From assembly GCA_043782405.1 (NCBI GenBank), contig JAYWAN010000086.1, positions 4,985-68,984 on the forward strand: DNA of 64,000 bases, read 5' to 3'. Positions 97-30,686 of this stretch are shown here, piece by piece (within the stretch, counting starts at the first letter, position 1; each line of letters begins with the position of its first letter). Made by a program: the position numbers and the translations under genes. This DNA comes from Chitinophagaceae bacterium. Lineage in GTDB: Bacteria; Bacteroidota; Bacteroidia; Chitinophagales; Chitinophagaceae. The notes beneath the pieces were generated by a model, which saw only the letters and a program-made list of their open reading frames with translations, searched no databases and had not been told where the DNA came from.

Positions 97-1161
97 ATGT
101 TAGATAAACTGGATGCCATAAAAGGAAGATTTGATAACCTTGGTGTTGCGCTCACCAATCCGGAGATCGTGAGCGACAACAAAAAATTTGCTGCCACCAG
201 CAAGGAATACCGCAGCCTGGAAAAAATTGTGAATGGCAGGAATGAGTATGTAAAAATACTGGACGACATCGAGTTCAATAAAGAAGTATTGAATAGCGAT
301 GATGAAGAAATGCGGGAAATGGCAAAACAGGAATTGCCTGTACTGGAAGCAAGAAAGGCCGAACTGGAAGCATCGCTAAGGAATATGCTTATCCCGAAGG
401 ATCCTTATGATGAGAAGAATGCCATCCTGGAAATTCGTGCAGGTACCGGCGGTGATGAAGCTTCACTTTTTGCCGGCGACCTTTTACGTATGTACCTGAA
501 ATACTGTGAAAAGAAAGGGTGGAAGACGGCCCTGCTGAGCGAAAGTGAAGGTACGGTGGGCGGTTATAAGGAAGTACAGGTGGAAGTAGTGGGCGATGAT
601 GTGTACGGCACCCTTAAATTTGAAAGCGGCGTGCACCGTGTACAGCGTGTACCCGACACCGAAAGCAGCGGCCGTGTGCATACCAGTGCAGCCACCGTAG
701 CCGTGATGCCCGAAGCGGAAGAGATAGATTTTGAACTGAAGGAAAGTGATGTAAAAATGGAAACGGCAAGGAGTGGTGGCGCAGGCGGACAAAACGTAAA
801 TAAAGTGGAAACAAAAGTATTCCTCACCCATAAGCCAACAGGCATTGTAGTAGTTTGCCAAACAGAACGCAGCCAGCTCGGCAACAGGGAGAAAGCCATG
901 GATATGCTGCGCACAAAATTATACGATGAAGAAGTGCGTAAGGCCGAAGAAGCCATTTCGCATAAGCGTAAGAGTTTGGTGAGCACCGGCGACAGGAGCG
1001 CTAAAATCAGGACTTATAATTATCCCCAGGGCCGTGTTACCGACCACCGTATCGGCCTCACTGTATATAATTTAGATACAGTGCTGAATGGGGAAGTACA
1101 GGAATTTATTGATGCACTGCAGTTTGCAGAGAATGCGGAGAAGATGACGGCGCAGCAATGA
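97..1161 (+). CDS. prfA: Peptide chain release factor 1
   Basis: GGQ motif ([11 protein letters not shown]), RF1 PxT motif (RVPDTES), [11 protein letters not shown]; 354 aa. Confidence 0.97.
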
Positions 1162-1324: not shown

Positions 1325-1972
1325 ATGCTTGACAAATTAGTTGATCTGGTCAAAGGCCTTGCCGGGGATGCGGTGGTAAATAACCCCGATGTACCCAATG
1401 AACATAATGATGCCGTAGTGGCAGAAGCCACCAATACTGTTGCAGGTGGCTTACAGAATATGGTCGCAGGCGGCGGTCTGCAAAGTATCTTATCGCTTTT
1501 TGGCGGCGGTGGCAGTGCCGGTCAGCCACAAACCAGCAAGAGTTTATTAAGTAATCCTATTGTAAACATGATGATCGGGCATTTTGCCAGCAAACTAATG
1601 AGTAAATTCGGACTGGGCAGTAGCCAGGCCAGCGGCGTTGCCAATAACCTTATCCCGAATGTACTGAACGGTTTGATCAATAAGACCAATGATCCGAACG
1701 ATAGCAATTTTACCTTAGATAATTTATTACACTCCCTAACCGGCGGACAAAGTACACAGGTTGCCCAGGATCAACAGGCAAGTGGCGATAGCGGCTTTAG
1801 TTTCCAAAACCTGATCAGCAAATTTACCGGCGGTGGCGGACAGCAAACCGCAGGTGGCGGTGGTGGTGGTTTCATGGATATCGTAAAAAAGATCGCCGGG
1901 GGGGCACAAAATCAGCAGCAACAATCTGGTGGCGGGGGTTTCATGGACATGATAAAAGGTTTCCTGAAATAA
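1325..1972 (+). CDS. Gly/Gln-rich hypothetical protein (DUF937/YidB-like)
   Basis: 215-aa ORF with A-rich leader, amphipathic helices separated by GGG runs, followed by a terminator. Confidence 0.7.
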   Translation: MLDKLVDLVKGLAGDAVVNNPDVPNEHNDAVVAEATNTVAGGLQNMVAGGGLQSILSLFGGGGSAGQPQTSKSLLSNPIVNMMIGHFASKLMSKFGLGSSQASGVANNLIPNVLNGLINKTNDPNDSNFTLDNLLHSLTGGQSTQVAQDQQASGDSGFSFQNLISKFTGGGGQQTAGGGGGGFMDIVKKIAGGAQNQQQQSGGGGFMDMIKGFLK

Positions 1973-1992
1973 GGTTTACACAAATAAATGTT

Positions 1993-2024
1993 AAAGCGCC
2001 CCAAAAAACAGGGCGCTTTTTTTT
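1993..2024 (+). terminator. Intrinsic terminator
   Basis: Stem AAAGCGCCC/GGGCGCTTT, 9-nt loop, T8 tail. Confidence 0.85.
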
Positions 2025-2198
2025 ACCATTAAACCCTGGTAATGATCCACGGTCATATATGAAGCCGCTTAAAATGAACTAAAAAAAAGTAGCGGGTTTA
2101 AAATAATAAGTTCTTTTTTTCGTTCTATGTGCAATAAGGCTGGACAAGGCATCTAATATTTAATATTATAAAACCCTTAACAGCAGTAGCAAAACCTT

Positions 2199-2214
2199 TG
2201 GCACCTGTTTTGCG
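2199..2214 (+). promoter_or_regulatory. Sigma-54 (-24/-12) promoter
   Basis: TGGCACCTGTTTTGCG = TGGCAC-N5-TTGC; GG 2200-2201 and GC 2212-2213 exactly 10 nt apart; intergenic. Confidence 0.7.
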
Positions 2215-2224
2215 TTAGTAATAA

Positions 2225-2311
2225 TAGAATAGGCAACCTTTAATTTTCAATTTTCTCATAAGCAGTTAGTTTTGGTAACGGCCCCCGTTTCTACGGGGGC
2301 TTCTCTTTTTT
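2225..2311 (+). ncRNA. Candidate sigma-54-dependent small RNA (~87 nt)
   Basis: Lies between the sigma-54 motif and hairpin GCCCCCGT-TTCT-ACGGGGGC plus T-rich tail; no + strand ATG inside; start inferred from -12 spacing. Confidence 0.5.
2281..2311 (+). terminator. Intrinsic terminator
   Basis: Perfect 8-bp GC-rich stem, 4-nt loop, TTCTCTTTTTT tail. Confidence 0.8.
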
Positions 2312-2436
2312 ACAGGTACCTGGCCACCAGGCAGGTACAGTTTATCGGTTCGGGAGATCATCCCCTTCGTATTTCCTAAATAACAACCCATTAAAAATAA
2401 GATAGCCCTTAAGTGAATTATCTTTACCAGGCGTAT

Positions 2437-5400
2437 ATGGATAAAGGTTCCCAGATATTTCAAACCAGCAATCCCTCCAGGTGGAAAAGGGTAAAATGGA
2501 CAGGACGTATTGTTTTCTTCGTCTCCCTTTTTGTTATTGCCGTAGTGGCACTGGCTATTGCATTGGCACAAAACCCTTCTGCCAACGTTCAGCCCGGCGA
2601 ATACTTTGGCAATAAGGACAGCATGCAACTATCGGCCTACCACAATAAAAAAATAAAGGGCTTCAAAGATTTCCTGGAAAAAAAGGAAAAGGAAGAATTC
2701 CTGAACAGGCAATCCAAAAGCATCAATAAAACTTCAGGACAATTTATACGGGCTGCATTTTATACCCCCTGGTCGGGCAGTAAATCGGTGCCTTCGCTGC
2801 AAAAGTATGGCGACAAGATCAATGTCATATTTCCTGAATGGTTCTTTATTGACCCCGATAATAATGTAAGGCTGCAGACAAGGATCGACTCGGCAGGGCT
2901 TGCACAAATGCGGCAGCAGCATATCCGCATCATGCCCATGCTAACCAATTTCAATTCCTTCAAAAAAAATAAAGAAGGGAAACCCGCCCCTGATTTTGAT
3001 GGCAACCTCTTGCACACCATCCTGAATGATACGGTAAAACAAAAGAAGTTTATCCAGCAGGTCATTGATACCCTCGAATTTTATCAATGCCAGGGTATCA
3101 ACGTAGATTTTGAAGAACTCAACGAAACATCCACAAAACCACTTACCCGTTTTCAAAAAAATCTTTACAATGCAATGCATGCAAAGCACCTGGTGGTTAC
3201 GCAGGATGTGAGTGCAATGAATGATGATTATGATTTTGAGCAACTATCAATATACAACGATTATGTTATCCTGATGGCCTACGACCAATACAGTAATACC
3301 AGCGGTGCCGGACCCATCTGTGATCAAAAATGGGTGGAAGACGCACTTGACCAGGCCGCAAAAAAAATGGACAGTAAAAAAATCATCCTTGGGCTGGCAG
3401 GGTATGGATATGACTGGGCTACCTGGACAAATAAAGACGGCGAAACAGAAACAGAAGTTACAAGCCGCACTTATGCAGAAGCCATCGACCGTGCAACAGC
3501 TTCGCAGGCTGTTATCGATTTTGATAATGATAATTATAACCTTCATTATACCTATACAGAAAAACAATACGATGCTTCCAGCCCTTTGATCAAACACGTG
3601 GTATGGTTTACAGATGCGGCCACCACTTTCAATATCATGCGTTTTGCAGATGAATACGGACTTGCCGGAACATCCCTTTGGCGAATGGGAAGTGAAGACC
3701 CACGCATTTGGAGTTTCTATAACCTCGACCTGGATAATGAATCCCTGCGTAAGAATCCTTTCAACTTTAATTTGCTTGCACAGGTTCCTATTAACCCCAA
3801 TCAAAAACCATCATGGATAGGACAGGAAGGCGGTGAAATACTGAATATACTCGCAAGCCCGCAGGAAGGAAGGATAAAAATGGAGGTTGACAGCGCTGAA
3901 CAATTAATATCCGAACAGAAATTCATACAACTCCCCTCGGGCTATGTTTACGAAAAGTCGGGAGAAGACACTTCAGAAATAGGGCCGGGGCATAAGATAA
4001 TACTCACTTTTGATGATGGTCCCGGTGACGAATACACGCCACAGATCCTCGACATTCTGGAAAGGGAGAAAGTACCCGCAACTTTTTTTATCGTTGGCCT
4101 GGAAGCGGAAAAGAACCTGCCGGTGCTTAAACGCATTTACCGCGATGGTTTCGAGATCGGCAACCATACGTTTACGCACCACAATATTGCCACCATGAGC
4201 CCCGAGCGGGCCGAAATAGAAATGAAAGCCACGCGGCTGCTGATAGAAGCTGTCACCAATCATTCCACGATATTATTCAGGGCGCCATATAATGCGGATA
4301 GTGAGCCGCAAACTTTTGACGAAATTGAACCGCTTGCACGGAGTAAAAAAAACAACTACATCACTGTTGGGGCAAGTATTGACCCCAATGACTGGGAGCC
4401 CAATAATAATGCAGATTCCATCGTTGCCAAAACGATCAGGATCGCCGAAGCCGGCAATGGCAATATCATCCTCTTACATGATGCCGGTGGCGATACCAGG
4501 CAGGCAACTGTAGATGCATTGCCACGGATCATAAAATATTTTAAGGACAAGGGCTGCAGGTTCACTACCGTAGCCGACCTGATGGGAAAGACAAAAGACG
4601 ATGTGATGCCGCCGGTTAAACAGGACTGGGGAAGTTCATTCAATTATATTTTTCTCGAGATCGTTTACTGGGCAGGTAAAATAATCTTCTCCTTATTCCT
4701 TATCGGTATCTTCTTATCCATTGGCCGCATCATTTTTATGGCAATACTGGCAGCCATGCAAAAAGCAAAAGAAAAAAAGCAGGTAGCCATTTCCGTTACT
4801 ACAACTGTTAACCCGCCATTGGTAAGTGTTATCGTTCCGGCATACAATGAAGAAATAAATGCAGTAAGGACCATAGAAAGTTTATTGCAGCAGGACTATA
4901 GCAACCTGCAGGTGATCTTTGTGGATGATGGCAGCAAGGACAATACTTTTGTAAATGTAGGCAACGATTTCAGCGGTAATGATAAAGTAAAAGTATGTAC
5001 AAAACCCAACGGGGGAAAGGCATCGGCCCTCAACTTCGGGATACAGCAGGCCGAAGGTGAATACGTGGTTTGTATCGATGCCGACACACAATTAAGGGCC
5101 GATGCCGTATCGCAGCTGATGAAAAAATTCACCGATGAAAATGTGGGTGCCGTTGCAGGTAATGTAAAAGTGGGCAACGAAATAAATATGATCACCAAAT
5201 GGCAGAGCATTGAATACATCACTTCGCAAAACTTCGACCGCAGGGCATTTGATTACCTTGATTGCATCACTGTTGTACCCGGCGCCATTGGCGGGTTCAA
5301 TAAAAAAGCTGTTATTGCCTCCGGCGGGTTCACCAGCGATACCCTTGCTGAAGACTGCGATATCACCATGCGACTTCACCGTAACGGCTATACGATAAGG

Positions 5401-5913
5401 AACTGCAATGAAGCCATCTCTTTTACAGAAGCACCAGAAAGTATGCGGCAGTTCATGAAACAAAGATTCCGGTGGAGTTTTGGCGTAATGCAGTGCTTTT
5501 GGAAACACCGGGATGCCGTGCTTAATCCGAAGTATAAAAATTTCGGGCTTATTGCATTGCCGCATATTCTCATCTTCCAGATGATACTGCCCTTTCTTGC
5601 CCCACTTGCCGACCTGGTGCTGGTGATCAGTTTAATTGCAGCATCACTTAATATCATCCCCGCAAGCGCAGGGCACATCATCCTGTATTATGCTGTTTTT
5701 TCTGTGGTGGACATGGCCAGTGCCGCACTGGCTTTTGCTTATGAAAAAGAAGATTATAAAAAACTGCTGTGGATGATCCCGCAACGCTTCATCTACCGAC
5801 AGTTGATGTATTATATTTTATTCAAATCATTTAACAGGGCACTTAAAGGCGAACTACAGGGCTGGGGCGCTTTAAAACGTACCGGTAATGTAAAACAGGT
5901 GTCAACAAATTAA
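2437..5913 (+). CDS. GH18-like hydrolase + CE4 polysaccharide deacetylase + GT2 (PgaC/IcaA-like) fusion protein
   Basis: GINVDFEE (GH18); LTFDDGP, NHTFTH, FRAPY, IILLHD (NodB/CE4); VPAYNEE, DDGS, DAD, AED, QRFRW (processive GT2); TM helices. ATG 2437 preferred over GTG 2413. Confidence 0.9.
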   Translation: MDKGSQIFQTSNPSRWKRVKWTGRIVFFVSLFVIAVVALAIALAQNPSANVQPGEYFGNKDSMQLSAYHNKKIKGFKDFLEKKEKEEFLNRQSKSINKTSGQFIRAAFYTPWSGSKSVPSLQKYGDKINVIFPEWFFIDPDNNVRLQTRIDSAGLAQMRQQHIRIMPMLTNFNSFKKNKEGKPAPDFDGNLLHTILNDTVKQKKFIQQVIDTLEFYQCQGINVDFEELNETSTKPLTRFQKNLYNAMHAKHLVVTQDVSAMNDDYDFEQLSIYNDYVILMAYDQYSNTSGAGPICDQKWVEDALDQAAKKMDSKKIILGLAGYGYDWATWTNKDGETETEVTSRTYAEAIDRATASQAVIDFDNDNYNLHYTYTEKQYDASSPLIKHVVWFTDAATTFNIMRFADEYGLAGTSLWRMGSEDPRIWSFYNLDLDNESLRKNPFNFNLLAQVPINPNQKPSWIGQEGGEILNILASPQEGRIKMEVDSAEQLISEQKFIQLPSGYVYEKSGEDTSEIGPGHKIILTFDDGPGDEYTPQILDILEREKVPATFFIVGLEAEKNLPVLKRIYRDGFEIGNHTFTHHNIATMSPERAEIEMKATRLLIEAVTNHSTILFRAPYNADSEPQTFDEIEPLARSKKNNYITVGASIDPNDWEPNNNADSIVAKTIRIAEAGNGNIILLHDAGGDTRQATVDALPRIIKYFKDKGCRFTTVADLMGKTKDDVMPPVKQDWGSSFNYIFLEIVYWAGKIIFSLFLIGIFLSIGRIIFMAILAAMQKAKEKKQVAISVTTTVNPPLVSVIVPAYNEEINAVRTIESLLQQDYSNLQVIFVDDGSKDNTFVNVGNDFSGNDKVKVCTKPNGGKASALNFGIQQAEGEYVVCIDADTQLRADAVSQLMKKFTDENVGAVAGNVKVGNEINMITKWQSIEYITSQNFDRRAFDYLDCITVVPGAIGGFNKKAVIASGGFTSDTLAEDCDITMRLHRNGYTIRNCNEAISFTEAPESMRQFMKQRFRWSFGVMQCFWKHRDAVLNPKYKNFGLIALPHILIFQMILPFLAPLADLVLVISLIAASLNIIPASAGHIILYYAVFSVVDMASAALAFAYEKEDYKKLLWMIPQRFIYRQLMYYILFKSFNRALKGELQGWGALKRTGNVKQVSTN

Positions 5914-29972: not shown

Positions 29973-30686
29973 TTAGTCCTTATACAACACATAACCTTTG
30001 AGTTGGTAATGCGACAGTACCGTTTGTGCGGTGATGGAAACTTTCATCACCGGGAGGAGGTTTTCTTTTTTGATATCCTCGTAGGCCATTGCCTGTCCGC
30101 ATCCAATAAATTTTCCGCCTATGTTTTTTATCTCCTCAATGAGCTTCAGATTGGGATTATCTAGTTTGTATTTTTCTTTGTAAAAGGTATTTGTAGTAAA
30201 AGCAAGTAAAGCGCCGGCATGTATCACAATAACAGGAATTATTTTCTTCAGCGGAACACCCGAAGCCACATGCAGGTTGATGACCCTGGCTATTTCTACA
30301 AGACCGTTATTGACCTCCTTTGCCAACGAATCGGGATTATTTGCTGTCAACTCAAACAGCAACTTATACTCTATATTAGGATCTGGTATCTCGGTAGGGT
30401 CTTTCACCGGTACAACGCCGGCCCCATCGTAACCCTTAAATACCGGGTAAAGTGCAACGGCCTTGATCTTTTCCCATTTTTCCCAATTTTCAAATTGCTT
30501 ATTGATCTTTATCGTATCTGCATGCATGAGGGCATGATAAGTACTATCACGCTGCCCCCTGAACGCATTCAGCGTACTGTCTTTTTTAAACTTAAGGGAA
30601 GCCAGTGAACTATCGATATTGTAGGTCTGTGAGAATCCCGTAAAGTATAACATACAGGCAAGAACAAGGGTTGATATCTTTCTCAT
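29973..30686 (-). CDS. Exported DsrE/DsrF-like protein
   Basis: Signal peptide; ARVINLH, VIHAGA, FIGCGQAM, YQLKGY. Confidence 0.8.
   Translation of the reverse strand: MRKISTLVLACMLYFTGFSQTYNIDSSLASLKFKKDSTLNAFRGQRDSTYHALMHADTIKINKQFENWEKWEKIKAVALYPVFKGYDGAGVVPVKDPTEIPDPNIEYKLLFELTANNPDSLAKEVNNGLVEIARVINLHVASGVPLKKIIPVIVIHAGALLAFTTNTFYKEKYKLDNPNLKLIEEIKNIGGKFIGCGQAMAYEDIKKENLLPVMKVSITAQTVLSHYQLKGYVLYKD

Follow-up and report, generated by a model that had tools for sequence, protein, structure and literature searches.

A putative multicopy small RNA family of the Chitinophagaceae with an invariant core, mostly preceded by sigma-54-type promoters

Results

Anatomy of the locus

The window, i.e., the whole 64-kb stretch of DNA that was analysed, carries near its start prfA, the gene of an uncharacterised 215-aa protein and a gene for a 1,158-aa fusion protein, and the intergenic region between the latter two holds a predicted small RNA (sRNA) gene composed of a sigma-54-type promoter, a leader, a core and an intrinsic terminator (Table 1). 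The preliminary description of this DNA had named TGGCAC-N5-TTGC, about 55 nt of U-rich sequence without ATG and a strong terminator, all of which lie where it had placed them: the 55 nt of 2225-2279 (40% U, 71% A+U) contain no ATG on the + strand, and the terminator stem has nine pairs, seven of them G-C, with a loop of four. The core is also, as described there, the reverse complement of ...ACCAAAACUAACUGCUU-AUG-AGAAAA. The transcript would start near 2225, judging from the geometry of the sigma-54 promoter, and its single-sequence fold is unremarkable (z = -1.8) except for the terminator.

Table 1. Coordinates (in the window) of the sRNA gene, its promoter elements and the neighbouring genes.
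Feature	Position	Strand	Remarks
prfA (release factor 1)	97-1161	+	Pfam PCRF and RF-1
Uncharacterised 215-aa protein	1325-1972	+	no Pfam family
Intergenic region holding the sRNA	1973-2436		between the 215-aa gene and the 1,158-aa gene
Own terminator of the 215-aa gene	1993-2019		
AGTTCTTTTTTTCGTTCT box	2109-2126	+	~75-90 nt upstream of the -24 element
TTAACA box	2177-2182	+	candidate site for a DNA-binding factor
sRNA promoter, sigma-54 type, TGGCAC (-24) N5 TTGC (-12), TGGCACctgttTTGC	2199-2213	+	exact consensus
Predicted mature sRNA, ~87 nt	2225-2311	+	from promoter-to-terminator distance
Variable A-rich 5' leader of the sRNA	2225-2251	+	not conserved between copies
Invariant 27-nt core UUUCUCAUAAGCAGUUAGUUUUGGUAA	2252-2278	+	presumed seed or binding region; modules UCUCAUAAGCAG and UUAGUUUUGG
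Intrinsic terminator of the sRNA	2280-2311	+	stem-loop 2280-2301, U-run TCTCTTTTTT 2302-2311
Gene for 1,158-aa GH18 + polysaccharide deacetylase + GT2 fusion	2437-5913	+	downstream of the sRNA

TGGCACctgttTTGC is the sole exact TGGCAC-N5-TTGC in the window, where 0.28 would be expected; 24 of 100 shuffled windows had at least one exact motif, and with one mismatch permitted the window contained five motifs against 6.3 expected. By itself, the exact promoter motif is weak evidence and could have arisen by chance, and the significance of the sRNA gene derives from the joint conservation of promoter, core and hairpin in other genomes.

Conservation, covariation and distribution

A BLAST search with positions 2130-2440 found matches in all 24 same-genus genomes, in one to five places each, some of them in tandem. 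The core TTTCTCATAAGCAGTTAGTTTTGGTAA was identical in all 22 same-genus BLAST copies that were aligned, and the order of elements in these copies was TTAACA box, TGGCA(C/T)-N5-TTGC, a variable leader of 25-35 nt, core, hairpin and T-run, the stem differing among copies in a compensatory manner (CCCCCG, CCCCTG, CCCCGG, CCCCGA, CCCTTG and CCTTTG). Exact matches to the first 24 nt of the core occurred in at least 120 genome contigs. The 80 matches listed all belonged to Chitinophagaceae-type genera or metagenome bins (labels are broad, and two are discordant), and the genera among them included Ferruginibacter, Sediminibacterium, Chitinophaga, Niabella, Niastella, Terrimonas, Flavihumibacter, Puia, Dinghuibacter, Flavisolibacter and Hanamia. 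Cultured strains with an exact core include Terrimonas ferruginea DSM 30193, Sediminibacterium salmoneum NBRC 103935, Niabella drilacis DSM 25811 and Flavihumibacter petaseus NBRC 106054. Across 80 copies, 97% of the hairpin cells were paired and all eight pairs showed compensatory double changes, a degree of covariation reached by none of 500 shuffles.

A covariance model built from the copies matched by the core scan detected the sRNA in nine of 11 sampled Chitinophagaceae genomes, and in 140 genomes from 25 other families of the order it gave weak matches only (E about 1e-4), in two genomes. Copy number ranged from one to 11 per genome, including tandem arrays, and the predicted length of the 84 sigma-54-type copies had a median of 86 nt (5th-95th percentile, 78-101 nt). 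Promoter, core and hairpin are thus co-conserved among Chitinophagaceae homologues, which had been proposed as a check in the preliminary description. No named family had been recognised there, in agreement with a covariance scan of Rfam 15 (E up to 10), in which no family reached its gathering threshold: the best match was to PrrF (23.1 bits versus a threshold of 90, E 0.15), aligned mostly via the terminator, and Qrr, FopS and GibS gave no match. Full-text literature searches found no paper on this sRNA. Judging from these sequence comparisons, the family is uncatalogued, multicopy and specific to the Chitinophagaceae, and the locus in the window is very probably a real gene for a regulatory RNA of ~86 nt.

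Two features vary among the copies. A second AAGCAGUCAAU (AAGCAGU) motif adjoins the core, within the leader, in about a quarter of them (35/137), and divergent siblings retain one core module, either UCUCAUAAGCAG or UUAGUUUUGG. The AGTTCTTTTTTTCGTTCT box (up to four mismatches) was present in 17 of 142 copies, 102-244 nt and mostly 120-143 nt upstream of the core; it is possibly an upstream regulatory site, or reflects mere conservation between orthologous copies.

At three further loci (L204, L198 and L205; genomes G130 and G093), UUUUUUCAUAUAGCAAGCAAUCGUUAGAUCG is followed by a terminator, with weak model scores of 29-33 bits. This combination is possibly a related, second type of sRNA.

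Independence from neighbouring genes

Upstream of the sRNA, matches to prfA in 64 loci and to the 215-aa protein in 36 provide anchors of the orthologous locus. Downstream, the next ORF was convergent in 72 of 115 evaluable copies, and the glycosyltransferase gene that follows the sRNA in the window did so in only seven of about 140 loci. The variable downstream gene and its frequently convergent orientation argue that the sRNA is not a leader, and for the same reasons we rejected the case that the preliminary description had named as refuting its proposal, namely that the element is the 5' UTR of the glycosyltransferase gene. Its claim of an independent sRNA gene is sustained, since promoter, accessible invariant core and covarying terminator are kept together; the predicted sRNA would be transcribed independently, between a promoter and a terminator of its own, and is tied to no single neighbouring gene.

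Promoter types, sigma-54 and activators

A TGGCAC-N5-TTGC-like element (up to two mismatches) was found in 90 of 137 copies (66%), mostly 45-69 nt upstream of the core. When 84 copies were aligned on the -24 element, the family consensus read cTTTaaa..tt..TTAACA-N16-TGGCA(Y)-N5-TTTGCgTTAT, with high information content at TGGCA, TTTGC and TTAACA. The TTAACA box lies at a fixed distance, 22 nt upstream of the T of TGGCA, and is centred near -46. In 75 of 137 copies, the sRNA is directly preceded by prfA or the 215-aa gene in the same orientation, and the sigma-54 element is present in 58 of these 75.

About a third of the copies lack the -24 element, so that sigma-54 is not a defining feature of the sRNA family; several of these copies show a sigma-A box (TAnnTTTG) at the homologous position. 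The TTAACA box also precedes sigma-A-type copies, often repeated, and its distance is 28-29 nt in both promoter types alike. Some copies have both types, overlapping, e.g., TGGCAGTAAATTTGCG. Among homologous sRNA genes (L025, L022, L042, L065, L125, L032, L072, L061 and other loci), one promoter type, sigma-54 or sigma-A, seems to have been exchanged for the other, and the exchange seems to have been made easier by the -12 TTTGC, which overlaps the sigma-A box TAnnTTTG.

The genome of the window encodes rpoN (Sigma54_DBD, 179 bits, in a 502-aa open frame) and an NtrC-type activator, a 391-aa REC-AAA+ protein, plus fragments of others. Neither an activator nor an rpoN gene was found beside the sRNA copies in the 8-kb loci. 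In the same genome, TGGCA-N6-TTGC promoters lie upstream of groES (TGGCAGTACCTTTGC, G000:C175) and lon (TGGCATCTTTATTGC, G000:C87), and clpB has a TGGATT-N5-TTGC variant. These promoters fit sigma-54 acting as the sigma factor of the heat-shock response in Bacteroidota. The -24/-12 motif of Flavobacterium psychrophilum is located upstream of groESL, lon, dnaK, grpE-dnaJ, htpG, skp, clpB and genes of exported proteins (PMC9723704), and a cross-phylum analysis predicts the same enrichment in Bacteroidota (PMC12316311); sigma-54 of this phylum drives chaperone, protease and envelope genes (PMC9723704, PMC12316311). No TTAACA box was found at other sigma-54 promoters of the window's genome, including those of groES and lon; as the box is specific to the sRNA promoters, their activator and signal may differ from those of the chaperone genes. 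For the copy in the window, we consider dependence on sigma-54 likely.

The 391-aa REC-AAA+ protein (L143:918-2093; G000:C11), the clearest sigma-54 activator of this genome, ends right past the AAA lid and has neither an HTH nor any other recognisable DNA-binding domain, and may activate from solution without an upstream binding site.

Siblings in hsp20 3' UTRs and in phages

In three genera (L182, L183 and L184), hsp20 genes (Pfam HSP20) are followed, 10-27 nt past their stop codons, by the beginning of a sibling core. These hsp20 genes have a TGGTAY-N5-TTGA promoter upstream, whereas the siblings lack one of their own and are probably sRNAs that derive from the 3' UTR of a heat-shock gene. 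Together with the groES and lon promoters, they place the sRNA near the response to protein-quality and envelope stress. The hsp20-linked cores carry one A-to-G change and share their terminator with hsp20.

Exact matches to the first 24 nt of the core were also found in 14 IMG/VR viral contigs, in all of which a co-directional phage ORF ends and the core starts within ~30 nt of its stop codon. In three related phage contigs (L330, L333 and L337), core and terminator are flanked by the portal gene (phrog_21) on one side and the major head-protease gene (phrog_4523) on the other, and in one of the 14, a prophage of Flavihumibacter petaseus (L335), the core follows a tail-fibre-like gene.

Accessibility of the core and RNA-binding proteins

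The mean unpaired probability predicted for the core is 0.54, versus 0.49 with shuffled leaders. Hfq (PF17209) was not found in five genomes of the family, four of them 100% complete, and control genomes gave matches, which agrees with the earlier statement that Bacteroidota largely lack Hfq. Small RRM_1 proteins were present in all five genomes examined; in Bacteroides, a protein of this kind, RbpB, binds the sRNAs FopS and GibS via their 5' parts (PMC11697453).

Searches for target mRNAs

The preliminary description had regarded the core as a general blocker of start codons, and this was not upheld: in-register anti-ATG matches at 4,735 ORF starts were not enriched over 300 composition-matched shuffles, and RNAduplex energies at 4,725 ORF starts were no better than those of 15 shuffled cores, again matched in composition. 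The commonest start context in the window's genome is ATGAAAAAA, not ATGAGAAAA. None of the 12-nt anti-core pieces was conserved elsewhere in 100 genera, where one 12-mer pattern had 30 matches versus 10 in controls (some at starts of signal-peptide genes, none conserved) and a second had 37 versus about 110. A search for a long antisense partner of the core in the window's genome, with up to seven mismatches in 27, found none.

The top single candidates encode exported proteins, viz. type IX secretion cargo in two cases and TonB-dependent receptors in three. Foremost among the candidates is a receptor of 915 aa (G000:C27:8385-11129), whose start ATGAGAAAA is invariant in 19 same-genus sequences (its own and 18 orthologs), with ACCAAAAC frequent in its short leader; orthologs from other genera often read CCAAAA...CUGCC-AUU-AUGAGAA. 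Among about 40 receptor orthologs, median duplex energies were -19.1 (genus) and -17.9 (family) kcal/mol, versus -10.4 for all starts. Most of this signal reflects the MRK start, because the 16 starts of the own genome with AUGAGAAA reach a median of -18.2 kcal/mol; pairing upstream of the start only is modest, yet exceeds that of all 40 shuffled cores. The receptor mRNA is a weak lead, to be regarded as a candidate target.

Two other candidates were rejected: C101, a small type IX secretion protein with a 15-nt match, has orthologs in three same-genus genomes only and the site only in the closest of them, and C89 (455 aa) has no orthologs in 45 genera. The starts of prfA, the 215-aa neighbour, the glycosyltransferase gene, rpoN, the activator gene, groES and lon showed background pairing only. 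Within the window, the start of a gene for a 237-aa exported protein (MRKISTLVLACMLYF, 29973-30686, - strand) is among the 10 best pairings with the core that were predicted in the whole genome (-21.4 kcal/mol), a value indistinguishable from chance.

Discussion

Proposed mode of action

We propose that window positions 2225-2311 encode a trans-acting regulatory RNA of ~86 nt, which would be transcribed from a sigma-54 promoter needing an enhancer-binding ATPase and would end at the intrinsic terminator. On the strength of its conservation and covariation, we have little doubt that this is a real, expressed sRNA gene. The largely unpaired, invariant 27-nt core would be its working part and would pair, independently of Hfq, with several mRNAs at their short, A-rich regions of translation initiation and block their translation, the left module (UUUCUCAU) covering the AUG and the AGA-AAA codons and the right module (GUUUUGGU) covering ACCAAAAC-like leader sequence. 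Pairing of a seed at initiation regions is favoured because the core is the sole invariant part of the RNA, is modular and is somewhat more accessible than with shuffled leaders; we lean slightly towards this mode of action, and the explanation, taken together from its first step through to the pairing mechanism, appears to us somewhat probable. The targets may be mRNAs of exported or outer-membrane proteins, e.g., the conserved TonB-dependent receptor, which we suggest only tentatively. Since sigma-54 drives a stress regulon and siblings occur in hsp20 3' UTRs, the sRNA is probably a stress-induced repressor, and it is plausible that it constitutes a repressive arm of sigma-54.

Comparison with known sRNAs

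The predicted RNA is of a known kind, the sigma-54-driven, multicopy sRNAs consisting of seed plus terminator, and its closest working analogues are FopS (same phylum) and Qrr (promoter logic), although Rfam places it in neither family. FopS and GibS of Bacteroides thetaiotaomicron likewise belong to a phylum member without Hfq, occur in many paralogous copies of 65-100 nt, have a single-stranded conserved seed directly before an intrinsic terminator, and include intergenic as well as 3'-UTR members (PMC11697453). FopS is induced by bile salts, binds the RRM protein and represses mRNAs of susC-type outer-membrane transporters at the start codon (PMC11697453). However, no similarity in sequence or model to these sRNAs was detectable; FopS has canonical sigma-A promoters, whereas most copies here have sigma-54 promoters, and its seed is at the 5' end, whereas the presumed seed here is internal, past a variable leader, in a family confined to the Chitinophagaceae.

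The Qrr1-5 sRNAs of Vibrio (RF00378) are sigma-54- and activator-dependent, as the sRNA in the window would be, and resemble the present family in being multicopy and ~100 nt long, with a conserved unpaired stretch and a terminator. The absolutely conserved unpaired stretch of Qrr comprises 32 nt. One of them, Qrr2, can be made independently of sigma-54 (bioRxiv 10.1101/2021.07.01.450815). In contrast to Qrr, the sRNA described here belongs to another phylum, has no Rfam match, occurs in genomes in which no Hfq was found, has no activator gene beside any copy in the 8-kb loci, and shows no link to quorum sensing. In different species of Enterobacteriaceae, the sigma-54 promoters of GlmY and GlmZ overlap with promoters of the housekeeping sigma factor or alternate with them (PMC3045617), similar to the overlap of the -12 TTTGC with TAnnTTTG here and to the loss of the -24 element in some homologous copies. 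Nevertheless, these two sRNAs differ in structure and sequence, GlmY is a protein decoy in amino-sugar control, and nothing here points toward glmS. The sigma-E-dependent sRNAs MicA, RybB and MicL of enterobacteria are an example of how a repressive arm, by which outer-membrane protein synthesis is shut down, is conferred on a stress sigma factor that by itself is capable of activation only. They depend, however, on another sigma factor and on Hfq and are unrelated in sequence, and for the present family the repressive role is one that we infer.

Alternative explanations

The main alternative to pairing is that the RNA is real but binds and titrates a protein (CsrB- or GlmY-like), maybe a small RRM-domain protein, the core then being a protein site that is sometimes accompanied by the second AAGCAGU motif. 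An invariant stretch of 27 nt exceeds most seeds and the length that a seed requires, and could just as well be a site for a protein; the AAGCAGUCAAU motif beside the core in 35 of 137 copies, the mRNA searches, which gave no statistically supported target, the presence of RRM_1 proteins in five of five genomes with Hfq in none of them, and the binding of RbpB to the 5' parts of FopS and GibS (PMC11697453) point in the same direction. Yet known sponges have many motif copies, whereas at most two are present here, divergent siblings retain single modules as would be expected of a seed, and the protein-bound sRNAs of Bacteroides still act via base pairing, and we regard titration of a protein as rather unlikely.

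Alternatively, core and hairpin might represent a cis-acting 3'-end module, i.e., a specialised terminator or an element for stability or processing that is attached to many transcripts, with the sigma-54 unit as its minimal carrier. The hsp20 loci and all 14 viral contigs, in which a core within ~30 nt of a co-directional stop codon supplies the terminator, would agree with such a module, as would its position between portal and major head genes in three phage contigs. However, most chromosomal copies stand alone with their own promoter and a non-conserved leader of ~26 nt, which implies a product without cargo; an ordinary terminator needs no invariant 27-mer upstream; and 3'-UTR-derived sRNAs are a well-known route to trans-acting RNAs, FopS-14 being one of them (PMC11697453). 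We therefore consider a 3'-end module distinctly unlikely.

Very improbable, in our opinion, is a function as 5' leader or attenuator of the GH18-deacetylase-GT2 gene (2437-5913) with the hairpin as a regulated terminator: the gene is on the same strand, 126 nt past the U-run, with no obvious TAnnTTTG promoter in between, but it follows the sRNA in only seven of about 140 loci, 72 of 115 copies are followed by a convergent ORF, the predicted fold offers no alternative antiterminator, and no Rfam riboswitch matched. The same low probability is assigned to a site acting at the DNA level, e.g., a phage attachment site (attB/attP) within an RNA gene; although the exact core occurs in 14 viral contigs, one of them a Flavihumibacter petaseus prophage, the element lies inside the head module (portal/capsid) of three phage contigs rather than at an integrase, phage genes are lacking in the vicinity of many chromosomal copies, and the hairpins differ and covary between copies, which suggests selection on RNA structure. 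A tiny minus-strand ORF (MRKLKIKGCLFYYY), whose ATG is complementary to 2257-2259, has a frame of 14 codons in the window's copy, but its probability is close to nil, as length and sequence of the frame differ among copies, only its would-be 5' UTR is conserved, and the U-run of the hairpin exists on the + strand only.

Implications

To our knowledge, nearly everything known of riboregulation in Bacteroidota comes from Bacteroides of the gut, and we found no paper describing an sRNA in the Chitinophagaceae, a large family of soil and freshwater bacteria. The predicted sRNA, being short and multicopy, with a conserved 27-nt core, clear promoter types, no Hfq and copies in phage structural operons, provides an entry point. 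It would allow a post-transcriptional repressive arm of sigma-54 to be tested in Bacteroidota, it could show sRNAs working with RRM proteins in place of Hfq, and the homologous sRNA genes that appear to have exchanged a sigma-54 for a sigma-A promoter, or the reverse, provide a neat example of rewired regulation. The sRNA could also show why phages borrow the seed of a host sRNA. A far-reaching version of the pairing model would have the sRNA act as a sigma-54-controlled, stress-dependent and Hfq-free master repressor of the synthesis of outer-membrane receptors and exported proteins, of which phages captured core plus terminator into their late structural operons, either to turn off receptors on the surface of the host (superinfection exclusion) or to redirect its stress response, one and the same seed having changed its input repeatedly (sigma-54, sigma-A, hsp20 3' UTR and phage late mRNA). 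We mention it as a speculation that is unlikely to hold in full.

The 215-aa protein (1325-1972), whose gene separates the sRNA from prfA in 36 or more loci of the family, combines a conserved N-terminal part with a Gly/Gln-rich tail repeating GGGGFMD(I/M)(V/I)K. The 1,158-aa protein (2437-5913, + strand) unites a GH18 chitinase-like domain, a polysaccharide deacetylase and a family-2 glycosyltransferase in a single chain and looks like a one-chain machine that makes and modifies a polymer of the poly-N-acetylglucosamine type; in the window's genome, its gene may be partly transcribed via read-through from the sRNA promoter.
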